Of a DNA stretch of 64,000 nt, positions 4,186-18,131 are shown in pieces; position 1 is the stretch's first letter, and the number at the start of each line of letters is the position of its first letter. A model generated the notes under the pieces. That model was not told where the DNA came from, did not search any database, and worked only from the letters and a program-made list of their open reading frames with translations. The stretch spans positions 108,365 through 172,364 of the IMG/VR virus record IMGVR_UViG_3300047558_000077. One strand, written 5' to 3'. Both the position numbers and the translations under genes were made by a program. Origin of the DNA: a virus.

Positions 4186-4506
4186 ATGATCACGAAACGC
4201 AAGAAGCGGTCCGACCGCAATCACATAATCTACAGCTTGACTGTAAAGGGTCAGGAATATATCGGTGTTACCCATGTCGAAAACGGCAAGGTTAACAAGT
4301 CTTTGGACCGTCGCTGGCGCAAGCATGTCGGTCGTGCGATGACCGAAGGTAAACTGTGGAAATTGTGCGTGGCTATTCGTAAGCATGGACCTGACAATTT
4401 CACTGTCGGCGTTCTGGAAATTGTGCGTGGTAAGTCTGCGGCTCATATACGTGAGCGGGAACTTATCCGTGAACGTAAGCCTAAACTTAACTCGGATGTG
4501 CGCTAA
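4186..4506 (+). CDS. Minimal GIY-YIG-family nuclease domain
   Basis: IIY...YIG motif, RWRKH helix, conserved E in ERELI, terminal LN. Confidence 0.7.
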   Translation: MITKRKKRSDRNHIIYSLTVKGQEYIGVTHVENGKVNKSLDRRWRKHVGRAMTEGKLWKLCVAIRKHGPDNFTVGVLEIVRGKSAAHIRERELIRERKPKLNSDVR

Positions 4507-4745
4507 TGTCTACAACCTTCAATGATCTTATTGGTATGCATGACCTTGACCAGAAGGTGATTGTAAAAAAGGCCTTAGAGAGCCTTACGCCCAGAATGCA
4601 ATTTGTCGTCATTCGTCGGTTTTTTCAGAACCAGACCTTGTCGTCAATCGCTGAGGAAATTGGTCTATCTGAGGCTAGACTATATCAAATTGAACGCAAA
4701 GCCCTATGCAGCCTAAAGCGTGGCTTTAGGCGAAACAAAATCTGA
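4506..4745 (+). CDS. Stand-alone sigma-70 region-4 HTH protein
   Basis: ALESLTPR...TLSSIAEEIGLSEARLYQIERKAL matches the sigma r4 pattern. Confidence 0.8.
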   Translation: MSTTFNDLIGMHDLDQKVIVKKALESLTPRMQFVVIRRFFQNQTLSSIAEEIGLSEARLYQIERKALCSLKRGFRRNKI

Positions 4746-4747
4746 GG

Positions 4748-4804
4748 TGCGACAACCTGTCGCATATGTTTACAGTTGACTCTTCCATTCCGCTGTGCTA
4801 ATAT
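4748..4804 (+). promoter_or_regulatory. Repeated early-promoter module, copy 2
   Basis: TGCGACA-ACC-TGTCGCA(4748-4764); TGTTTACA(4767-4774); TTGACT(4776)-17-TAATAT; spacer nearly identical to copy 1. Confidence 0.8.
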
Positions 4805-4831
4805 ATTCCCATAATGATGAAAGGAACAAAT

Positions 4832-5002
4832 ATGTCTAACGCTCGCTTCGCTCCCAAGAACCCCAACGGCAAAGATACTGCTAACATTTTTGCGCTTATT
4901 CGCTGGCACGAAAATGGTGGTAAAATCACCAAAGTGAAATCGTCCAAGCGTCCGAAGCGTGGTTATACTGTCGGTAAATCTGTCAAAACGGGAGATAAGT
5001 GA
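4832..5002 (+). CDS. Small basic hypothetical protein
   Basis: AAGGA RBS before ATG 4832; NGGKITKV motif. Confidence 0.6.
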   Translation: MSNARFAPKNPNGKDTANIFALIRWHENGGKITKVKSSKRPKRGYTVGKSVKTGDK

Positions 5003-5202
5003 TGGAAGTTTTCGTCCTGATGAGCCATATCCTCTATGAATGCGACGAGTTGCTGGGCGTCTACCACAATGAATCGGACGCCGAGTTTGCCCGTGATGAA
5101 TATAAACGAGAAAACGAAGATCATATGTTCGATCAATTTAGCATTGAACGCCGTGTAATCGGTGCTGCGGCTCGGGCAGATTGGGAGACAGATAATGTCT
5201 GA
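4999..5202 (+). CDS. Small acidic phage protein (LLGVY..E..A motif)
   Basis: GGAG RBS; overlaps the previous stop. Confidence 0.6.
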   Translation: MMEVFVLMSHILYECDELLGVYHNESDAEFARDEYKRENEDHMFDQFSIERRVIGAAARADWETDNV

Positions 5203-5275
5203 TATCGTTCTGTTTATTGTGCTATTCGGTATGCCTATATCCCTGGGCCTTATTGCTATTCTCTCGGAGGACTAA
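5195..5275 (+). CDS. Small membrane peptide (26 aa)
   Basis: MSDIVLFIVLFGMPISLGLIAILSED; GGAG RBS. Confidence 0.5.
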   Translation: MSDIVLFIVLFGMPISLGLIAILSED

Positions 5276-5399
5276 TATGACAGAACAGGAAATCACCAAG
5301 CACAATAACCGCAATTCTGAACATCAGCTTATTTGGCATGGTGTTTGCGTTTGGATCTATTCTGAATATCTGAATGGATAACTCGGAGGACTAATATGA
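5263..5399 (+). repeat. 18-bp direct repeat CTCGGAGGACTAATATGA bracketing a mini-ORF
   Basis: Identical copies at 5263-5280 and 5382-5399, each containing RBS + ATG. Confidence 0.8.
5277..5381 (+). CDS. Mini-ORF (34 aa)
   Basis: MTEQEITKHNNRNSEHQLIWHGVCVWIYSEYLNG; strong GGAGG RBS. Confidence 0.5.
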   Translation: MTEQEITKHNNRNSEHQLIWHGVCVWIYSEYLNG

Positions 5400-5581
5400 T
5401 TGATCGTGATGCCTTAATAGCCGCAATATATGATCGTTATCTTGTTATAGGTAACTATTGGTGGTGTATTGATGATGTGCCCGACTTTTTAGATGATGTT
5501 ATGTCCGATGGTCACTATGATAATATATCTTTTGATCAGATAGTTGTCATGGTTTCCGATTATATGTATGATTGCGACTAA
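5396..5581 (+). CDS. Small acidic hypothetical protein
   Basis: GGAGG RBS; 61 aa. Confidence 0.6.
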   Translation: MIDRDALIAAIYDRYLVIGNYWWCIDDVPDFLDDVMSDGHYDNISFDQIVVMVSDYMYDCD

Positions 5582-5591
5582 GGAGAATGAA

Positions 5592-5696
5592 ATGATCGAT
5601 AATTCTAAAACGGTTCAGTTTGTGGCACTAACGGTAATGTCACTAGCATTGGTGTTCGGTGTTTATCTGATTTATCTTCTGGATGGAGGCATCTAA
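5592..5696 (+). CDS. Small membrane peptide (34 aa)
   Basis: MIDNSKTVQFVALTVMSLALVFGVYLIYLLDGGI; AGGAG RBS. Confidence 0.5.
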   Translation: MIDNSKTVQFVALTVMSLALVFGVYLIYLLDGGI

Positions 5697-5887
5697 TGGA
5701 GTTTACTCTCTTCAAGGCTCTAATGATTATTATGTTTATTCTCACGGCTGTTGGCATGGCATATAATGCTAAAATCATGAATGATTGTATTGATAGTGGC
5801 AGTCCAAAAAGCCAGGCGTGTTTCAAGTATAATGTAATCAATAACAACATGCATAATCTCAACCTGAACGTAGATAATGGAGAATGA
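5696..5887 (+). CDS. Small membrane-anchored protein with two Cys
   Basis: N-terminal hydrophobic helix; GGAGG RBS. Confidence 0.6.
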   Translation: MEFTLFKALMIIMFILTAVGMAYNAKIMNDCIDSGSPKSQACFKYNVINNNMHNLNLNVDNGE

Positions 5888-5889
5888 AA

Positions 5890-6042
5890 ATGGCTAATGT
5901 GAAGACCTATAACCTTTCTATTCATCTGAAAGGTAATCGCACTCTCACTTTTCGTGGCATTTCTCGTGTAGCGGTTGAACGATATCGCAAGCACTATGAA
6001 ATCCAAATGGACTATATTTCCGCATCGGTGGAGAATCGTTAA
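5890..6042 (+). CDS. Small hypothetical protein (50 aa)
   Basis: MANVKTYNLSIHLKGNRTLTFRGISRVAVERYRKHYEIQMDYISASVENR; GGAG RBS; stop overlaps the rtcB ATG. Confidence 0.55.
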   Translation: MANVKTYNLSIHLKGNRTLTFRGISRVAVERYRKHYEIQMDYISASVENR

Positions 6043-7265
6043 TGTCTTATCAGTTCGTGCAAGGTCGTGGTGCGCCGCTCAAGATGTGGTGCGAAGGTGT
6101 TGAGGTCGAGGACGATGCTCGTACCCAGTTAGAGAACATAGCGTCCTTGCCGTTCGTGTATAAGCATGTGGCGGTGATGCCGGATGTTCACTTGGGTAAG
6201 GGTGCTACGGTTGGTTCGGTTATCGCTACCAAGGGTGCGGTAGTTCCGGCGGCTGTTGGTGTTGATATCGGTTGCGGTATGATGGCAGTTCGGTTGTCTC
6301 TAAAGGCAAACGACTTGCCGGACAATCTTGCTTCGCTTCGTTCTCATATCGAGTCCGTAGTGCCGCATGGTCGCACGGACAACGGCGGTAAGAACGACAA
6401 GGGAACGTGGCTTGACCGCATTCCGAACTCGGCTTCAAATGCTTGGTTGTCTTTGTGTAGCCGTTATGATGCTATAGTGGCAAAGCACCCGAAGATTGCG
6501 TCTCATAAGACTTTTGAGTTTATGGGCACTCTCGGCACGGGCAACCACTTTATCGAGTTGTGTCTGGACGAGGACGATTATGTGTGGGTAATGCTACACT
6601 CTGGTTCTCGTGGTGTAGGTAACAAGATCGGTCAGTATTTCATCGAGGCTGCTCGCAAGGAGATGGAGCGATATCATATCCTGCCGTATCTGCCGGATAA
6701 GGACTTGTCCTATTTGGTAGAGCATACCACGCTATTCGATGATTATGTTGAAGCAGTATCCTGGGCACAGGAGTTTGCTGCTCTCAACCGTCAGGTGATG
6801 ATGGATGCGGTGCTTGATGTTCTGCGTCAGCGTTTGCCGTCGTTTGTCGTGTCTGATGAAAAGGCTGTGAACTGCCACCACAACTATATCTCCAAGGAAA
6901 ACCACTTTGGAGAAAATGTGTTTGTGACCCGTAAGGGTGCGGTTCGTGCCCGTGAAGGCGATCTTGGTATCATACCGGGTTCTATGGGCACGGGTTCGTT
7001 TATCGTTCGTGGTCTTGGTAATCAGGAGTCGTTTTGTTCGTGTTCTCATGGTGCTGGTCGTCGTATGTCCCGCAATGCGGCTCGTAAGGCTATCACGCTA
7101 GATGATCATATCAAGGCGACCGAGGGTATTGAGTGCCGTAAGGACGTAGATGTGATTGACGAATCGCCGGCTGCTTACAAGGATATCGGTGCGGTCATGG
7201 CTGCACAGGATGACCTTGTTGAGATTGTCCACCGATTGCGTCAGGTTCTAAACGTAAAGGGATAA
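6042..7265 (+). CDS. rtcB: RtcB 3'-phosphate/5'-OH RNA ligase
   Basis: MPDVHLGKGATVG, GVDIGCG, GTLGTGNHFIE, HSGSRG, CHHN, SHGAGR, DESPAAYK motifs. Confidence 0.97.
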   Translation: MSYQFVQGRGAPLKMWCEGVEVEDDARTQLENIASLPFVYKHVAVMPDVHLGKGATVGSVIATKGAVVPAAVGVDIGCGMMAVRLSLKANDLPDNLASLRSHIESVVPHGRTDNGGKNDKGTWLDRIPNSASNAWLSLCSRYDAIVAKHPKIASHKTFEFMGTLGTGNHFIELCLDEDDYVWVMLHSGSRGVGNKIGQYFIEAARKEMERYHILPYLPDKDLSYLVEHTTLFDDYVEAVSWAQEFAALNRQVMMDAVLDVLRQRLPSFVVSDEKAVNCHHNYISKENHFGENVFVTRKGAVRAREGDLGIIPGSMGTGSFIVRGLGNQESFCSCSHGAGRRMSRNAARKAITLDDHIKATEGIECRKDVDVIDESPAAYKDIGAVMAAQDDLVEIVHRLRQVLNVKG

Positions 7266-7267
7266 AA

Positions 7268-7384
7268 ATGAAACGCAAGAATGTAAACCCAGTGGCTAAG
7301 GCGTTACGTCTTGGTGTATGTAAACCTAAGGTGATTGTAGACAGGAAAACTGTATACAATCGCAAAAGGCTACCAAAACTATAG
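7268..7384 (+). CDS. ArfA-like small basic peptide (38 aa)
   Basis: MKRKNVNPVAKALRLGVCKPKVIVDRKTVYNRKRLPKL; aligns by eye to the ArfA core N-x5-L-x5-[KR]-x-[KR]-V-x4-K...Y-x-RK; not in the ORF track. Confidence 0.6.
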   Translation: MKRKNVNPVAKALRLGVCKPKVIVDRKTVYNRKRLPKL

Positions 7385-7540
7385 ACTATAGTGACTTGGT
7401 GTTCTAATATCTCAAAAATACCCCTTCAAGGGCAACCATGCCCTGTCCGAAAAATCGATAGGAAGCACCAGGAGACTTTTCACGGTCTTCTGGTGCTATA
7501 GTCTCTTCCAGACCTCAAAACTCTCCTGGCGTCTCCTGGA
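7383..7540. other. Structured intergenic region (candidate ncRNA / processing element)
   Basis: Hairpins AGGGCA/TGCCCT (7429-7444) and AGCACCAGGAGAC/GTCTTCTGGTGCT (7464-7497); outer AGACTATAG/CTATAGTCT; alternative partner GTCTCCTGG at 7531-7539. Confidence 0.45.
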
Positions 7541-7543
7541 GAT

Positions 7544-7643
7544 TGTAAACAGTCTACCAACTCTATAGACTTTAGGTGCGACATCCTGTCGCACCTGTTG
7601 ACATACGATTTCTCTTGCTTCTTCCGTTCCGTTGTGCTACTAT
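7544..7643 (+). promoter_or_regulatory. Repeated early-promoter module, copy 3
   Basis: TGTAAACAGTCTAC; TGCGACA-TCC-TGTCGCA(7577-7593); TGTTGACA(7596-7603); TTGCTT(7615)-17-TACTAT. Confidence 0.8.
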
Positions 7644-7669: not shown

Positions 7670-8311
7670 ATGATCAATCTCTCCAAGGCCTCTAAAATGC
7701 CTGCTAAGTCCTGGTCGCTTCAAGCGGGTTCGACCTGTCCGGGTTCTATCGATCCCGTTACCAAGCAGCCGCTTCCTGTTTGTGCGGGTTGTTATGCAAA
7801 AGATGGCATGTATAATATGCCAAACGTCAAGTCGGTTCGTGACGCTAATCGAGAAGATTGGAAGCGTGCCGAATGGGTCGATGAAATGGTTGCTTTGCTT
7901 AAAAAGCAAAAGTATTTCCGTTGGTTCGACTCGGGAGACGTTTATCATCCGGCTCTTGCTTTCAAAATCTTTCTGGTTATGCAAAAGACTCCGCATGTGA
8001 AGCATTGGCTTCCTACCAAGTCTTATAACATTCCGAAGATCCGTGCTATTCTTGATCAGATGAAAATGCTTCCGAATGCATCTGTTCGATATTCGTCTCC
8101 GTCTATTACGGGTGAATTTAATAGCGAACATGGCTCCACTGTTATCGCATATGCCGATGATGAAACGACCGCTACGGTCTGTGGTGCTTATTCTCGGAAT
8201 GGCAAGTGTGGCGATTGCCGTGCTTGCTGGGATACGAATGTTAAGGTTGTCGCTTATCCCGCACATGGTCGTCGTATGATGTCCAAAGTCCGTAAAATGA
8301 AAGCAGCCTAA
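7670..8311 (+). CDS. GP88-like (radical-SAM-like) Fe-S protein
   Basis: TCPGS..VCAGCYA, FRWFDSGD, HWLPTK, C-terminal C..CGDCRACW; AAGGA RBS before ATG 7670. Confidence 0.7.
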   Translation: MINLSKASKMPAKSWSLQAGSTCPGSIDPVTKQPLPVCAGCYAKDGMYNMPNVKSVRDANREDWKRAEWVDEMVALLKKQKYFRWFDSGDVYHPALAFKIFLVMQKTPHVKHWLPTKSYNIPKIRAILDQMKMLPNASVRYSSPSITGEFNSEHGSTVIAYADDETTATVCGAYSRNGKCGDCRACWDTNVKVVAYPAHGRRMMSKVRKMKAA

Positions 8312-16124: not shown

Positions 16125-17591
16125 ATGATTATCACTCGTAACTGGATACGTGACGACATACTCATATACACCGAGAAAGCCACTGGCGGTCTTCGTGTGT
16201 ATGGTAAGAAAGACATATGCGAGTTTATCAATTATTGGAAACTGAAACTACTATCACATAATGCAAAGCCTGGTGATAAATTAGGATTTACGTTTGAGAA
16301 CACCGAGATTCATTCTTATGCTCTTATGTTTGCAGCATTTGAACTTGGGTTACGTGTTGTGGTTTTACATCGACCAAGCACAGAGAAGGAATGTTTGGCA
16401 CCAAAAAGCAATGCTCATTTACCTCTAGACTTCTATGTCTATCTCACATCATACCTAAATCGTTCAACTACTGTCACGGGTGTCAATCATTATCGAAAGC
16501 ATTCTAAAGTTTGCATTAGCTATGGTCCTATGGAATGGACCGAGTTTAGTGAAGACTTTAGATCAAATGAAGAAACACCTATAACAGTCAAACCCGACGA
16601 TGTTGCTTTTTGTTGTAACAGTAGCGGTACAACCGGAGATCCTAAACTCATATCATACACACACGAGTTTCTTTACAACCTATGCACACATAACTGGCAA
16701 GACTTAGGTTATAAAGACGATGATACCATTGTGCATCTGTCTTCCCTAAATCACGGTGGAGTCATAACTTTACTATTACCGGCACTAAGAACTTGCAAGA
16801 CACACTTCTTTTATAACTACATCTTTGCAGCATCATATGATCGTCTTCTATCATTCATAGATGTTTGTCTAGATTATAATGTGTCAAAAATATTCTTTGC
16901 AAACGGTGGGGAGCTGAATACGCTCATTGATCACTTAATAGAAACCGATAATAAACTATCCAATGTTAGTGCCTACATTCTTTCGTTTATCAGTCCTAGA
17001 TGGTCAGATACTATTCGTGATCAAAGACTAAAGGAGATTGTTAGCGTTTTTGGTTGTAGTGAGATATGTGGTCCTGTCTTTATGCCTAGACTAGACAATA
17101 GCAATGTTGATGGCTTTGATCCAAAGTTACTAGGCAAGCCAATGACAGGCTTCTATGAAACAAAGATCATTAATAACAGAATACACACGAAACTAAAAGA
17201 CGGAGGAGAGTTTGTCTTTGATGATGTTGTAGAAGATAGAGTAGAAGGCGCTTATTTCATATCAAAGAATAGACTACAGAAGATCAATGATGTGGATATC
17301 AATCCACTGGACATTATAGAGATAGTAGAAAGATATGTATCACGGTATGAGTTTGAGTTATATGTGGACGAAATCTATAACGAGATATACATCATAACTT
17401 CCAATGCCAATCTTGATAGAGGGAAGATAAGACAAGACATATCTGCATTCTATCTGGACAAGATAACTCTAACCGATATCATATACGAAAAGGAACTATA
17501 TGATACTCGGATCACTCACAAAGCGGAAAGAGATAAACTATCACACATAGTTGAAAGATTCCGCTTGACATTTCAGAATAACTCTGTATAA
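16125..17591 (+). CDS. Adenylate-forming (AMP-binding, ANL superfamily) enzyme
   Basis: NSSGTTGDPK P-loop, LNHGG, FGCSE (YGxxE-like), C-terminal K. Confidence 0.75.
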   Translation: MIITRNWIRDDILIYTEKATGGLRVYGKKDICEFINYWKLKLLSHNAKPGDKLGFTFENTEIHSYALMFAAFELGLRVVVLHRPSTEKECLAPKSNAHLPLDFYVYLTSYLNRSTTVTGVNHYRKHSKVCISYGPMEWTEFSEDFRSNEETPITVKPDDVAFCCNSSGTTGDPKLISYTHEFLYNLCTHNWQDLGYKDDDTIVHLSSLNHGGVITLLLPALRTCKTHFFYNYIFAASYDRLLSFIDVCLDYNVSKIFFANGGELNTLIDHLIETDNKLSNVSAYILSFISPRWSDTIRDQRLKEIVSVFGCSEICGPVFMPRLDNSNVDGFDPKLLGKPMTGFYETKIINNRIHTKLKDGGEFVFDDVVEDRVEGAYFISKNRLQKINDVDINPLDIIEIVERYVSRYEFELYVDEIYNEIYIITSNANLDRGKIRQDISAFYLDKITLTDIIYEKELYDTRITHKAERDKLSHIVERFRLTFQNNSV

Positions 17592-17597
17592 TAAATA
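17565..17597 (+). promoter_or_regulatory. Promoter of the tmRNA gene (sigma70-like, with overlapping late-type TAAATA)
   Basis: TTGACA(17565)-16-TATAAT(17587); AATAAATA at 17590-17597. Confidence 0.7.
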
Positions 17598-17884
17598 CTA
17601 TGCCGAGGTCGTTGAGAGGAACGGCATAGACGTTTCGGACGGGAGTTCGACTCTCCCCACCTCCACCATAGGTACACATTTTGAGGTCTTGGTCGTTACC
17701 AGCATGGCAAAAACGGCGACAATGTGTATCTTTGATGGGGGTGTAACGGGTATCGACGGGCGTAGTAAGGGTTCAAGGAGACCAAAGGCAAATTGCAGGT
17801 GCAGCAAACGACAATGTACCATTTGATTACGCTCTAGCAGCATAATCATTGGGGTGGCGACTTCCCTAGAAACAGAAAAGTCGC
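17598..17884 (+). ncRNA. ssrA: Circularly permuted two-piece tmRNA; acceptor piece ~17598-17668, intervening segment 17669-17736, coding piece 17737-~17884
   Basis: T-arm GGGAG-TTCGACT-CTCCC, then CACCTCCA-CCA (ends 17668); 5' end GGGGGTG at 17737 pairs with it including the G3:U70 Ala determinant; D-loop-like GGGTATCGAC; tag ORF GCA AAC GAC AAT...GCA GCA TAA = ANDNVPFDYALAA (17804-17845); 3' hairpin GCGACTT/AAGTCGC. Confidence 0.93.
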
Positions 17885-17906
17885 ATTTTCAAAAAGGATC
17901 TATGTG

Positions 17907-18131
17907 ATGACACCGGATGATATTCAAAAGTTTAGTATGGAGATCGAGGAACTGGTCTATATGAAGGACATTCCTTATATTGATGCTGTTGTGGAATACT
18001 GTGAGATGACCGGGTTTGAAATAGAAACTGCGGCCAAATTAGTCTCCGGCGTTCTCAAATCTAAAATCAAACTCGAAGCAGAAAACCTCCACTACCTCAA
18101 AAAGTCAAACACCTCACAACTTCCTCTCTAA
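17907..18131 (+). CDS. gp33: Late transcription coactivator gp33
   Basis: FSMEIEELV...YIDAVVEYCE...LKSKIKLEAENL pattern; position before gp59. Confidence 0.9.
   Translation: MTPDDIQKFSMEIEELVYMKDIPYIDAVVEYCEMTGFEIETAAKLVSGVLKSKIKLEAENLHYLKKSNTSQLPL

Follow-up and report, generated by a model that had tools for sequence, protein, structure and literature searches.

A 38-codon open reading frame (ORF) in a phage genome encodes a small basic peptide of the Pfam family DUF7230. Conservation of the ORF indicates that it is a genuine gene, and profile comparisons indicate that the resemblance of the family to ArfA is homology, not chance. ArfA is a peptide by which bacteria release ribosomes that have stalled on broken mRNAs. 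On the same comparisons, we class DUF7230 as a sister branch of ArfA without the loop, distinct from canonical ArfA. We lean, with no great confidence, to reading the peptide as an early, constitutive, release-factor-dependent rescue factor whose basic tail would sense the empty mRNA channel. Other readings have to be weighed, as we discuss below.

A 38-codon gene of the DUF7230 family

The window, by which we mean the whole 64-kb stretch of DNA analysed, is the last part of a virus record of 172,364 bp that CheckV rates as complete (GC content 40.8%). The first-pass annotation of the window had quoted a 38-residue peptide at 7268-7384, and the start, stop and translation are confirmed: the ORF, as read from the sequence, opens with an ATG at 7268 and closes with an ordinary stop, TAG, at 7382-7384 on the + strand (Table 1). 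The product has a net charge of +12, with 13 K/R residues and one D. A Shine-Dalgarno (SD)-like site lies within the end of the preceding gene, rtcB, through which translation of the ORF is possibly coupled to that of rtcB; purine-rich sites precede the ATG in relatives too.

The peptide matches DUF7230 (Pfam PF23876) over residues 7-34 with 31.2 bits (E 2.3e-7), above the Pfam gathering cut-off of 27 bits, and a six-frame search of the genome with PF23876 gave 29.8 bits. Among viral contigs with an RtcB at least 88% identical, all 20 have a homolog 3' of rtcB. Pairwise dN/dS among six relatives is 0.05-0.32, with dS up to ~1.9. A profile built from eight phage copies, led by a 58-residue relative, retrieved 155 proteins of 35-86 residues at E <=1 from 5.8e9 proteins. 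Their common core consists of N-P-V-A-K-A-L, followed by a K/R-x-K/R-I/V-V strand and then by K-x-x-Y-x-R-K. Near-identical ORFs have also been called by gene callers in other assemblies (P0001). The ORF is taken to be a real gene because of the dN/dS values, its presence in 20/20 relatives, the 155 family members and the match to PF23876 above the cut-off. The ORF has only 38 codons, which is under many gene-caller limits, and could for that reason be suspected of being a chance ORF; purifying selection, the match to a curated Pfam family and hundreds of homologs rule this out on sequence grounds and leave it a negligible probability.

Other searches say little about function. A single-sequence phmmer search of 1.84e9 representatives, for which the query is very short, returned a 95%-identical copy, a spurious match to a repeat protein and nothing else. 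Megablast of the window region and tblastn of the peptide against deposited phages gave no matches, and NCBIfam has no match for the peptide. PHROG matches are to families of unknown function only, and an ESM Atlas feature search gave only hypothetical or DUF7230 clusters. No paper naming DUF7230 was found in the searchable literature. The cultured Puniceispirillum phage HMO-2011 (SAR116) carries a 69%-identical homolog of the marine DUF7230 subgroup at 1290-1445 of GU557055.1 / NC_021864.1, with no annotated feature over it.

Table 1. Positions of the features discussed (window coordinates unless another source is given)
Feature	Position	Strand	Remarks
Sigma-70-like promoter, TTGACT, 17 nt, TAATAT	4776..4804	+	behind palindrome 4747-4765
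rtcB (3'-phosphate/5'-OH RNA ligase), full length	6042..7265	+	Pfam RtcB 6.1e-128, profile positions 1-426/426
SD-like AAAGGGA	7256..7262	+	5 nt 5' of ATG; overlaps rtcB end
ArfA-like gene (Pfam DUF7230), TAG stop	7268..7384	+	ORF, PF23876, dN/dS, hhalign to ArfA
Structured 3' untranslated stretch	7385..7575	+	fold z-score -6.9; 0/200 shuffles as good
19-nt palindrome/hairpin closing the unit	7576..7594	+	conserved; sister-phage ArfA-like ORFs run into/through it
Palindrome copies	window 4112, 4747, 7576, 9001; genome 62717, 75552, 75659		
Promoter TTGCTT, 17 nt, TACTAT	7615..7643	+	drives GP88-family gene, as read from sequence
GP88/DUF7227-family gene	7670..8311	+	Pfam GP88 3e-30; Cys-rich motifs
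Permuted two-piece tmRNA	17561..17936	+	Rfam RF04321 95 bits, RF01849 56 bits
Rhizobiales DUF7230-like loci	L183-L190		genomes G153, G160, G108, G090, G067, G119, G142, G156

Relationship to ArfA

The first-pass annotation had aligned the peptide with the ArfA core by eye, and had staked its claim on a profile search against ArfA. That search returned homology. When 38 family members, none of which contains KGKGS, were aligned by hhalign to 15 enterobacterial ArfA sequences, the score was 31.6 (probability 84.7%, E 6.7e-6). Column shuffling was used as a control because both families are K/R-rich. The best of 200 column-shuffled ArfA alignments scored 18.1 (probability 8.3%), and a reversed-alignment control scored 10.6. 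The real signal is far above both controls, and similarity of composition only is thereby ruled out.

In the profile alignment, residues 4-38 of the window peptide correspond to residues 12-47 of ArfA, with one inserted residue and a three-residue gap at G35-K36-G37. The alignment drawn by eye is thus reproduced, except that its gap had two residues instead of three. The earlier remark that most of the KGKGS segment is missing also held: the window peptide reads R-K-T-V-Y at this position, and GKG is deleted. Conserved counterparts in the peptide or its family are found for ArfA N14, L20, R26/R28 (as K/R), V29, Lys33/34, Y39, R41 and K42, and the invariant Asn lies exactly as far from the R-x-R-V strand as it does in ArfA.

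The family and ArfA are also linked by intermediates. The phage-only profile recovers short proteins that are labelled PF03889 (Pfam ArfA) and contain KGKGSY, at E 6e-5 to 2e-2. They include P0061 (E 6e-5), P0063 (3e-4), P0089 and P0114, the last of which is named 'stalled ribosome alternative rescue factor ArfA' by one source. P0063, a Pfam ArfA protein, and P0046, a DUF7230 protein, are nearly identical in their N-terminal halves, the loop being the main difference between them, and the two Pfam families therefore form a continuum. Among 177,635 PDB sequences, the best profile matches were two ArfA chains, with non-significant E values of 0.38-0.47.

A peptide that is very short, carries a net charge of +12, finds no match in NCBIfam and falls into PHROG families of unknown function might be a generic polybasic binder of nucleic acid, such as an RNA chaperone or a ribosomal-protein mimic, whose likeness to ArfA is convergent. 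This is very unlikely, given that the profile-profile signal survives composition-preserving column shuffling, that the KGKGSY intermediates link both families and that the spacing from the Asn to R-x-R-V is the same as in ArfA.

Departures from canonical ArfA are, at the same time, substantial. Neither the peptide and eight relatives nor the whole phage genome gave a match to Pfam ArfA at E <=10 (the Pfam cut-off for ArfA is 25.5 bits). The K44-H45 pair of ArfA is replaced by L-P in the window peptide. Six residues precede the conserved Asn, as against 13 in ArfA, and N-termini range from 1 to 24 residues across the family. In ArfA, folding of an N-terminal minidomain (residues 2-16) activates RF2 (PMC5378476). 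Judged from the alignment, a minidomain of this type cannot form in the same way in the peptide. ArfA Phe25 fills a pocket of RF2 (PMC6299226), and the hydrophobic patch of Leu19, Leu24 and Phe25 contacts RF2 Trp319, Val198 and Phe217 (PMC5378476). The counterparts of the patch in the peptide are Ala12, Val17 and Cys18; at the Phe25 position the family as a whole has F, C, L, Y or R, with Arg in the marine subgroup. At the other end of the molecule, the shortest active ArfA truncation reported ends at Asn47 (PMC5378476), with which the last residue of the peptide, Leu38, is aligned. K/R make up six of the last 14 residues. The basic tail reaches Asn47 by alignment only, its path being two residues shorter than that of ArfA.

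A probable role in ribosome rescue and the design of related genes

The phage carries several genes related to translation. Its tmRNA, a second component for ribosome rescue in this genome, is of the alpha type and lies 10 kb 3' of the ArfA-like gene, with a tag peptide that ARAGORN gives as 14 residues ending in YALAA. The genome has 24 tRNA genes. SmpB was not found in the genome, nor was an RF-1 domain (PF00472) found anywhere in it. The phage also has pmoC (genome C1:61952-62677; L102), and its PmoC shares 90-93% identity with PmoC from Methylocystis and from related Beijerinckiaceae, among them metagenome-assembled genomes (MAGs) from Lake Mendota. Because of the pmoC identity and the alpha-type tmRNA, the host of this large lake phage is probably a Methylocystis-like, methane-oxidising alphaproteobacterium. 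One of the best PmoC matches (L103), a 4.6-kb contig assigned to a MAG, could itself be phage DNA binned together with its host.

ArfA has been described as restricted to some beta- and gamma-proteobacteria (PMC8012679), and an alphaproteobacterial host therefore lies outside its reported range. Pfam ArfA was found in none of 121 genomes sampled from the Rhizobiales, the probable host order. The DUF7230 profile matches 12 of these 121 genomes (~10%), in ordinary chromosomal neighbourhoods that contain a DctM transporter, LemA, an S49 peptidase, MoaA and an acyl-CoA-type ligase. Within the ORF, four of the six Rhizobiales homologs examined (L183, L184, L185, and L188) have a hairpin that is rich in GC and leads into a U-tract. 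In L184 this element is ~140 nt before the stop, and transcripts terminated at it would encode ~51 residues, with R-K-I-K-H-R-K-G as the tail. Related designs are seen in phages. In the sister phages L014, L015, L017, and L020, the ORF (58-59 residues) passes through a 19-nt hairpin and a T-rich tail before it reaches its stop, and many database members terminate in translated hairpin sequence.

A terminator within the ORF makes arfA and brfA mRNAs non-stop, which places both genes under tmRNA control (PMC8012679). The same design in the Rhizobiales genes is hard to explain unless they back up trans-translation, and it is the strongest indirect argument for a role of DUF7230 in ribosome rescue. 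By their sequence, these chromosomal genes are candidate ArfA-type rescue factors of the Alphaproteobacteria. The window copy does not have the non-stop design: its TAG is ~80 nt before the first strong hairpin and ~190 nt before the palindrome that closes the unit. It stops ahead of the hairpins, and therefore should be made whenever the operon is transcribed.

From these comparisons we infer the ribosome binding, release-factor recruitment, expression timing and biological purpose of the peptide. Its basic C-terminal half (~residues 23-38, with the invariant Y-x-R-K) would thread into the mRNA channel, which is vacant only when the ribosome has run to the 3' end of a truncated mRNA and stalled. 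The N-terminal half, formed by the NPVAKAL helix and the V-C-K-P-K-V strand region, would recruit a class-I release factor of the host, probably RF2. The recruited factor would then hydrolyse peptidyl-tRNA, allowing the ribosome to be recycled. With its normal stop codon, the peptide would be constitutive in early infection, whereas bacterial arfA is made only when trans-translation fails. Together with the phage tmRNA, the 24 tRNAs and RtcB, it could keep host ribosomes usable while RNA is being cut, either by defence nucleases of the host or by mRNA decay that the phage itself induces.

The peptide might instead bind the mRNA channel and fail to activate a release factor, blocking rescue by the host (tmRNA-SmpB or ArfB) or parking ribosomes. 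The part best conserved in common with ArfA is indeed the basic tail (Y-x-R-K and flanking K/R), RF2 activation is less plausible for a peptide with a short and variable N-terminus and no aromatic residue at the Phe25 position, and the A18T variant of ArfA binds the ribosome and RF2 and does not trigger release (PMC5378476). However, NPVAKAL, which aligns to the part of ArfA that faces RF2, is the most conserved stretch of the family, with the N invariant and the P nearly so, and a pure plug is not expected to keep it. The tmRNA of the phage itself also depends on that empty channel. Cellular homologs whose ORF contains a terminator look like backup factors repressed by tmRNA, not like inhibitors; the non-stop design in relatives therefore favours a rescue factor over a dominant-negative binder. 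We regard a channel binder of this kind as unlikely, and continue with the rescue factor.

Known systems bear on the rescue reading in different ways. ArfA (YhdL; PF03889; PDB 5MGP, 7OJ0 and others) is the RF2-dependent rescue factor of E. coli and of beta- and gamma-proteobacteria. The peptide resembles it in being small and basic, in a core that can be aligned from Asn14 to Asn47, in the Y-x-R-K tail and, through its relatives, in the hairpin-in-ORF design. It differs in having no Pfam ArfA match, no GKG and no K-H, with 6 residues before the Asn and Cys at the Phe25 position, and also in being phage-borne, in its ordinary stop and in its probable alphaproteobacterial host. Several of these differences count against a rescue role, the points being the PF03889 miss, the GKG deletion, the missing K-H, the short N-terminus, the Cys at Phe25, the alphaproteobacterial host and the lack of a non-stop design. 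A complex prediction for the peptide (with a family alignment) and E. coli RF2, run without controls, scored 0.02 against a mark of 0.32, and counts neither for nor against a rescue role.

Phage ArfA proteins with KGKGSY (P0061, P0063, P0089 and P0114), and gp30 of the pelagiphage HTVC027P (PMC12753301), share with the peptide its size class, phage context and NPVAKAL half. The KGKGSY homologs keep the loop and pass Pfam ArfA, whereas the window peptide is placed in the loop-less DUF7230 branch. HTVC027P gp30 is annotated as ArfA and has been reported to be expressed during infection (PMC12753301); this was the one paper found in the searchable literature with an annotation of a phage ArfA. 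ArfT of Francisella and BrfA of Bacillus are release-factor-dependent rescue peptides of 40-70 residues in which a basic tail senses the empty channel (PMC6299226, PMC8012679), and BrfA is likewise made from a terminator-truncated mRNA (PMC8012679). ArfT can use RF1 or RF2. No sequence relationship of either to the peptide was detected, and both are regarded as independently evolved.

The rtcB neighbour and the probable early unit

The ArfA-like gene directly follows rtcB, as the first-pass annotation had said: the TAA stop of rtcB is at 7263-7265, and the ATG is 2 nt on. The rtcB product also matches the PHROG 'tRNA splicing ligase' at 1e-150. From this position, paired RNA repair and ribosome rescue had been proposed. 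The adjacency itself is real and is kept in 20/20 close relatives; as a sign of pairing it did not extend beyond the lineage. A DUF7230 ORF was found within 2.5 kb of rtcB in none of 60 loci whose RtcB is 60-72% identical, and a search through 42 whole records of more distant phages with RtcB, 23 of them at least 90% complete, found no DUF7230 gene adjoining rtcB. Two weak DUF7230 matches turned up in these 42 records, neither near rtcB and one ~20 kb away. Conversely, none of five other DUF7230 or ArfA-like phage contexts has rtcB within 4-5 kb. Among relatives, 80-690 nt are often inserted between the two genes, with one or two small ORFs in the longer inserts. A general pair of RtcB and an ArfA-like gene is rejected on the 0/42 result. 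The rtcB adjacency is due to the shared ancestry of one phage clade; on these gene-order comparisons, the pairing is synteny within that clade.

The precedent for a functional pair is the PrfH-RtcB2 operon, in which the gene for a rescue factor likewise adjoins an RtcB ligase gene (PMC9304027), and which performs rescue and repair one after the other (PMC9304027, PMC9223846). PrfH is homologous to release factors and has a catalytic (GGQ) domain of its own, whereas no RF-1 domain is present in the phage; PrfH and RtcB2 are widely paired, and the pairing in the window is confined to one phage clade. By analogy with this operon, RtcB and the peptide could form a dedicated two-step module in which ribosome rescue is followed by RNA re-ligation, countering a ribotoxin or an anticodon nuclease. 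The 2-nt gap with the SD within the end of rtcB, the gene order kept in 20/20 close relatives and the PrfH-RtcB2 precedent (PMC9304027, PMC9223846) would fit such a module. It is nevertheless quite unlikely in view of the 80-690 nt inserts in relatives, some with other ORFs, of the 0/42 distant RtcB phages with DUF7230 near rtcB and of the five other contexts without rtcB within 4-5 kb, and common ancestry of one clade explains the adjacency. Paired rescue and repair is possible, and is unsupported by gene-neighbourhood statistics.

A broader reading, which we hold to be rather unlikely, is that DUF7230 is a distinct, widespread and overlooked release-factor-dependent rescue branch, of which the Methylocystis phage has a constitutively expressed copy wired to RtcB and to its tmRNA against RNA-cutting defences. 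The branch would then occur in many phages, and on the chromosomes of some Alphaproteobacteria that lack canonical ArfA, and the phage copy would belong to an early 'keep translation alive' toolkit, with ribosome rescue followed by RNA re-ligation. If this were true, a loop-less branch of 35-60 residues in phages and Rhizobiales would widen the range of release-factor-dependent rescue, phages would bring their own rescue factor, and the peptide would be a minimal natural scaffold for asking which parts of ArfA serve channel sensing and which serve release-factor activation. Evidence for a specific coupling to rtcB is weak. The analysis contributes a negative answer to the question of whether the rtcB pairing is general; a DUF7230 peptide carried alongside a tmRNA by a phage that probably infects Methylocystis; and chromosomal DUF7230-like genes with internal terminators in the order of the host, where canonical ArfA was not found. 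A phage with a tmRNA, 24 tRNAs, RtcB and pmoC suggests heavy investment in sustaining translation in a slow-growing methanotroph.

Same-strand ORFs are tightly packed from 4814 to 7384, behind a module at 4747-4804 that consists of a palindrome and a promoter. This promoter is likely the start of an early unit whose last gene is the ArfA-like gene, as inferred from its sequence and position. The preceding early unit contains a gene for a small GIY-YIG protein (4186-4506, +) and one for a 79-residue protein that comprises sigma-70 region 4 only (4506-4745, +; Pfam 1e-11). The latter could be an anti-sigma or appropriator-like early regulator.

The palindrome is of the type GTGCGACA-n3-TGTCGCAC, is 19 nt long and lies just 5' of sigma-70-like promoters. 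In related phages T-runs follow it and the ArfA-like ORF overlaps it. Its role may accordingly be that of an RNA hairpin, either a terminator or a processing site, instead of or besides that of a site for protein binding. Between the stop of the ArfA-like gene and the palindrome, the structured stretch folds into two long hairpins, one with a perfect stem of 14 bp at ~7463-7494. By blastn, it has no copy in the genome or in the fetched loci of relatives, except for its last ~30 nt; the part without a copy is the middle ~150 nt. The stretch may serve as a small RNA or as a 3' UTR with a stabilising role.

Beyond the palindrome, the promoter module of the GP88-family gene is also found at three other sites. 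A GP88/DUF7227 gene lies within ~1-2 kb of the DUF7230 gene in four of the five phage contexts examined, the window included; contexts of this kind (L082-L086, L092-L095) include those of T7-like marine phages. The AlphaFold model of the GP88-family protein encoded in the window has a mean pLDDT of 33.
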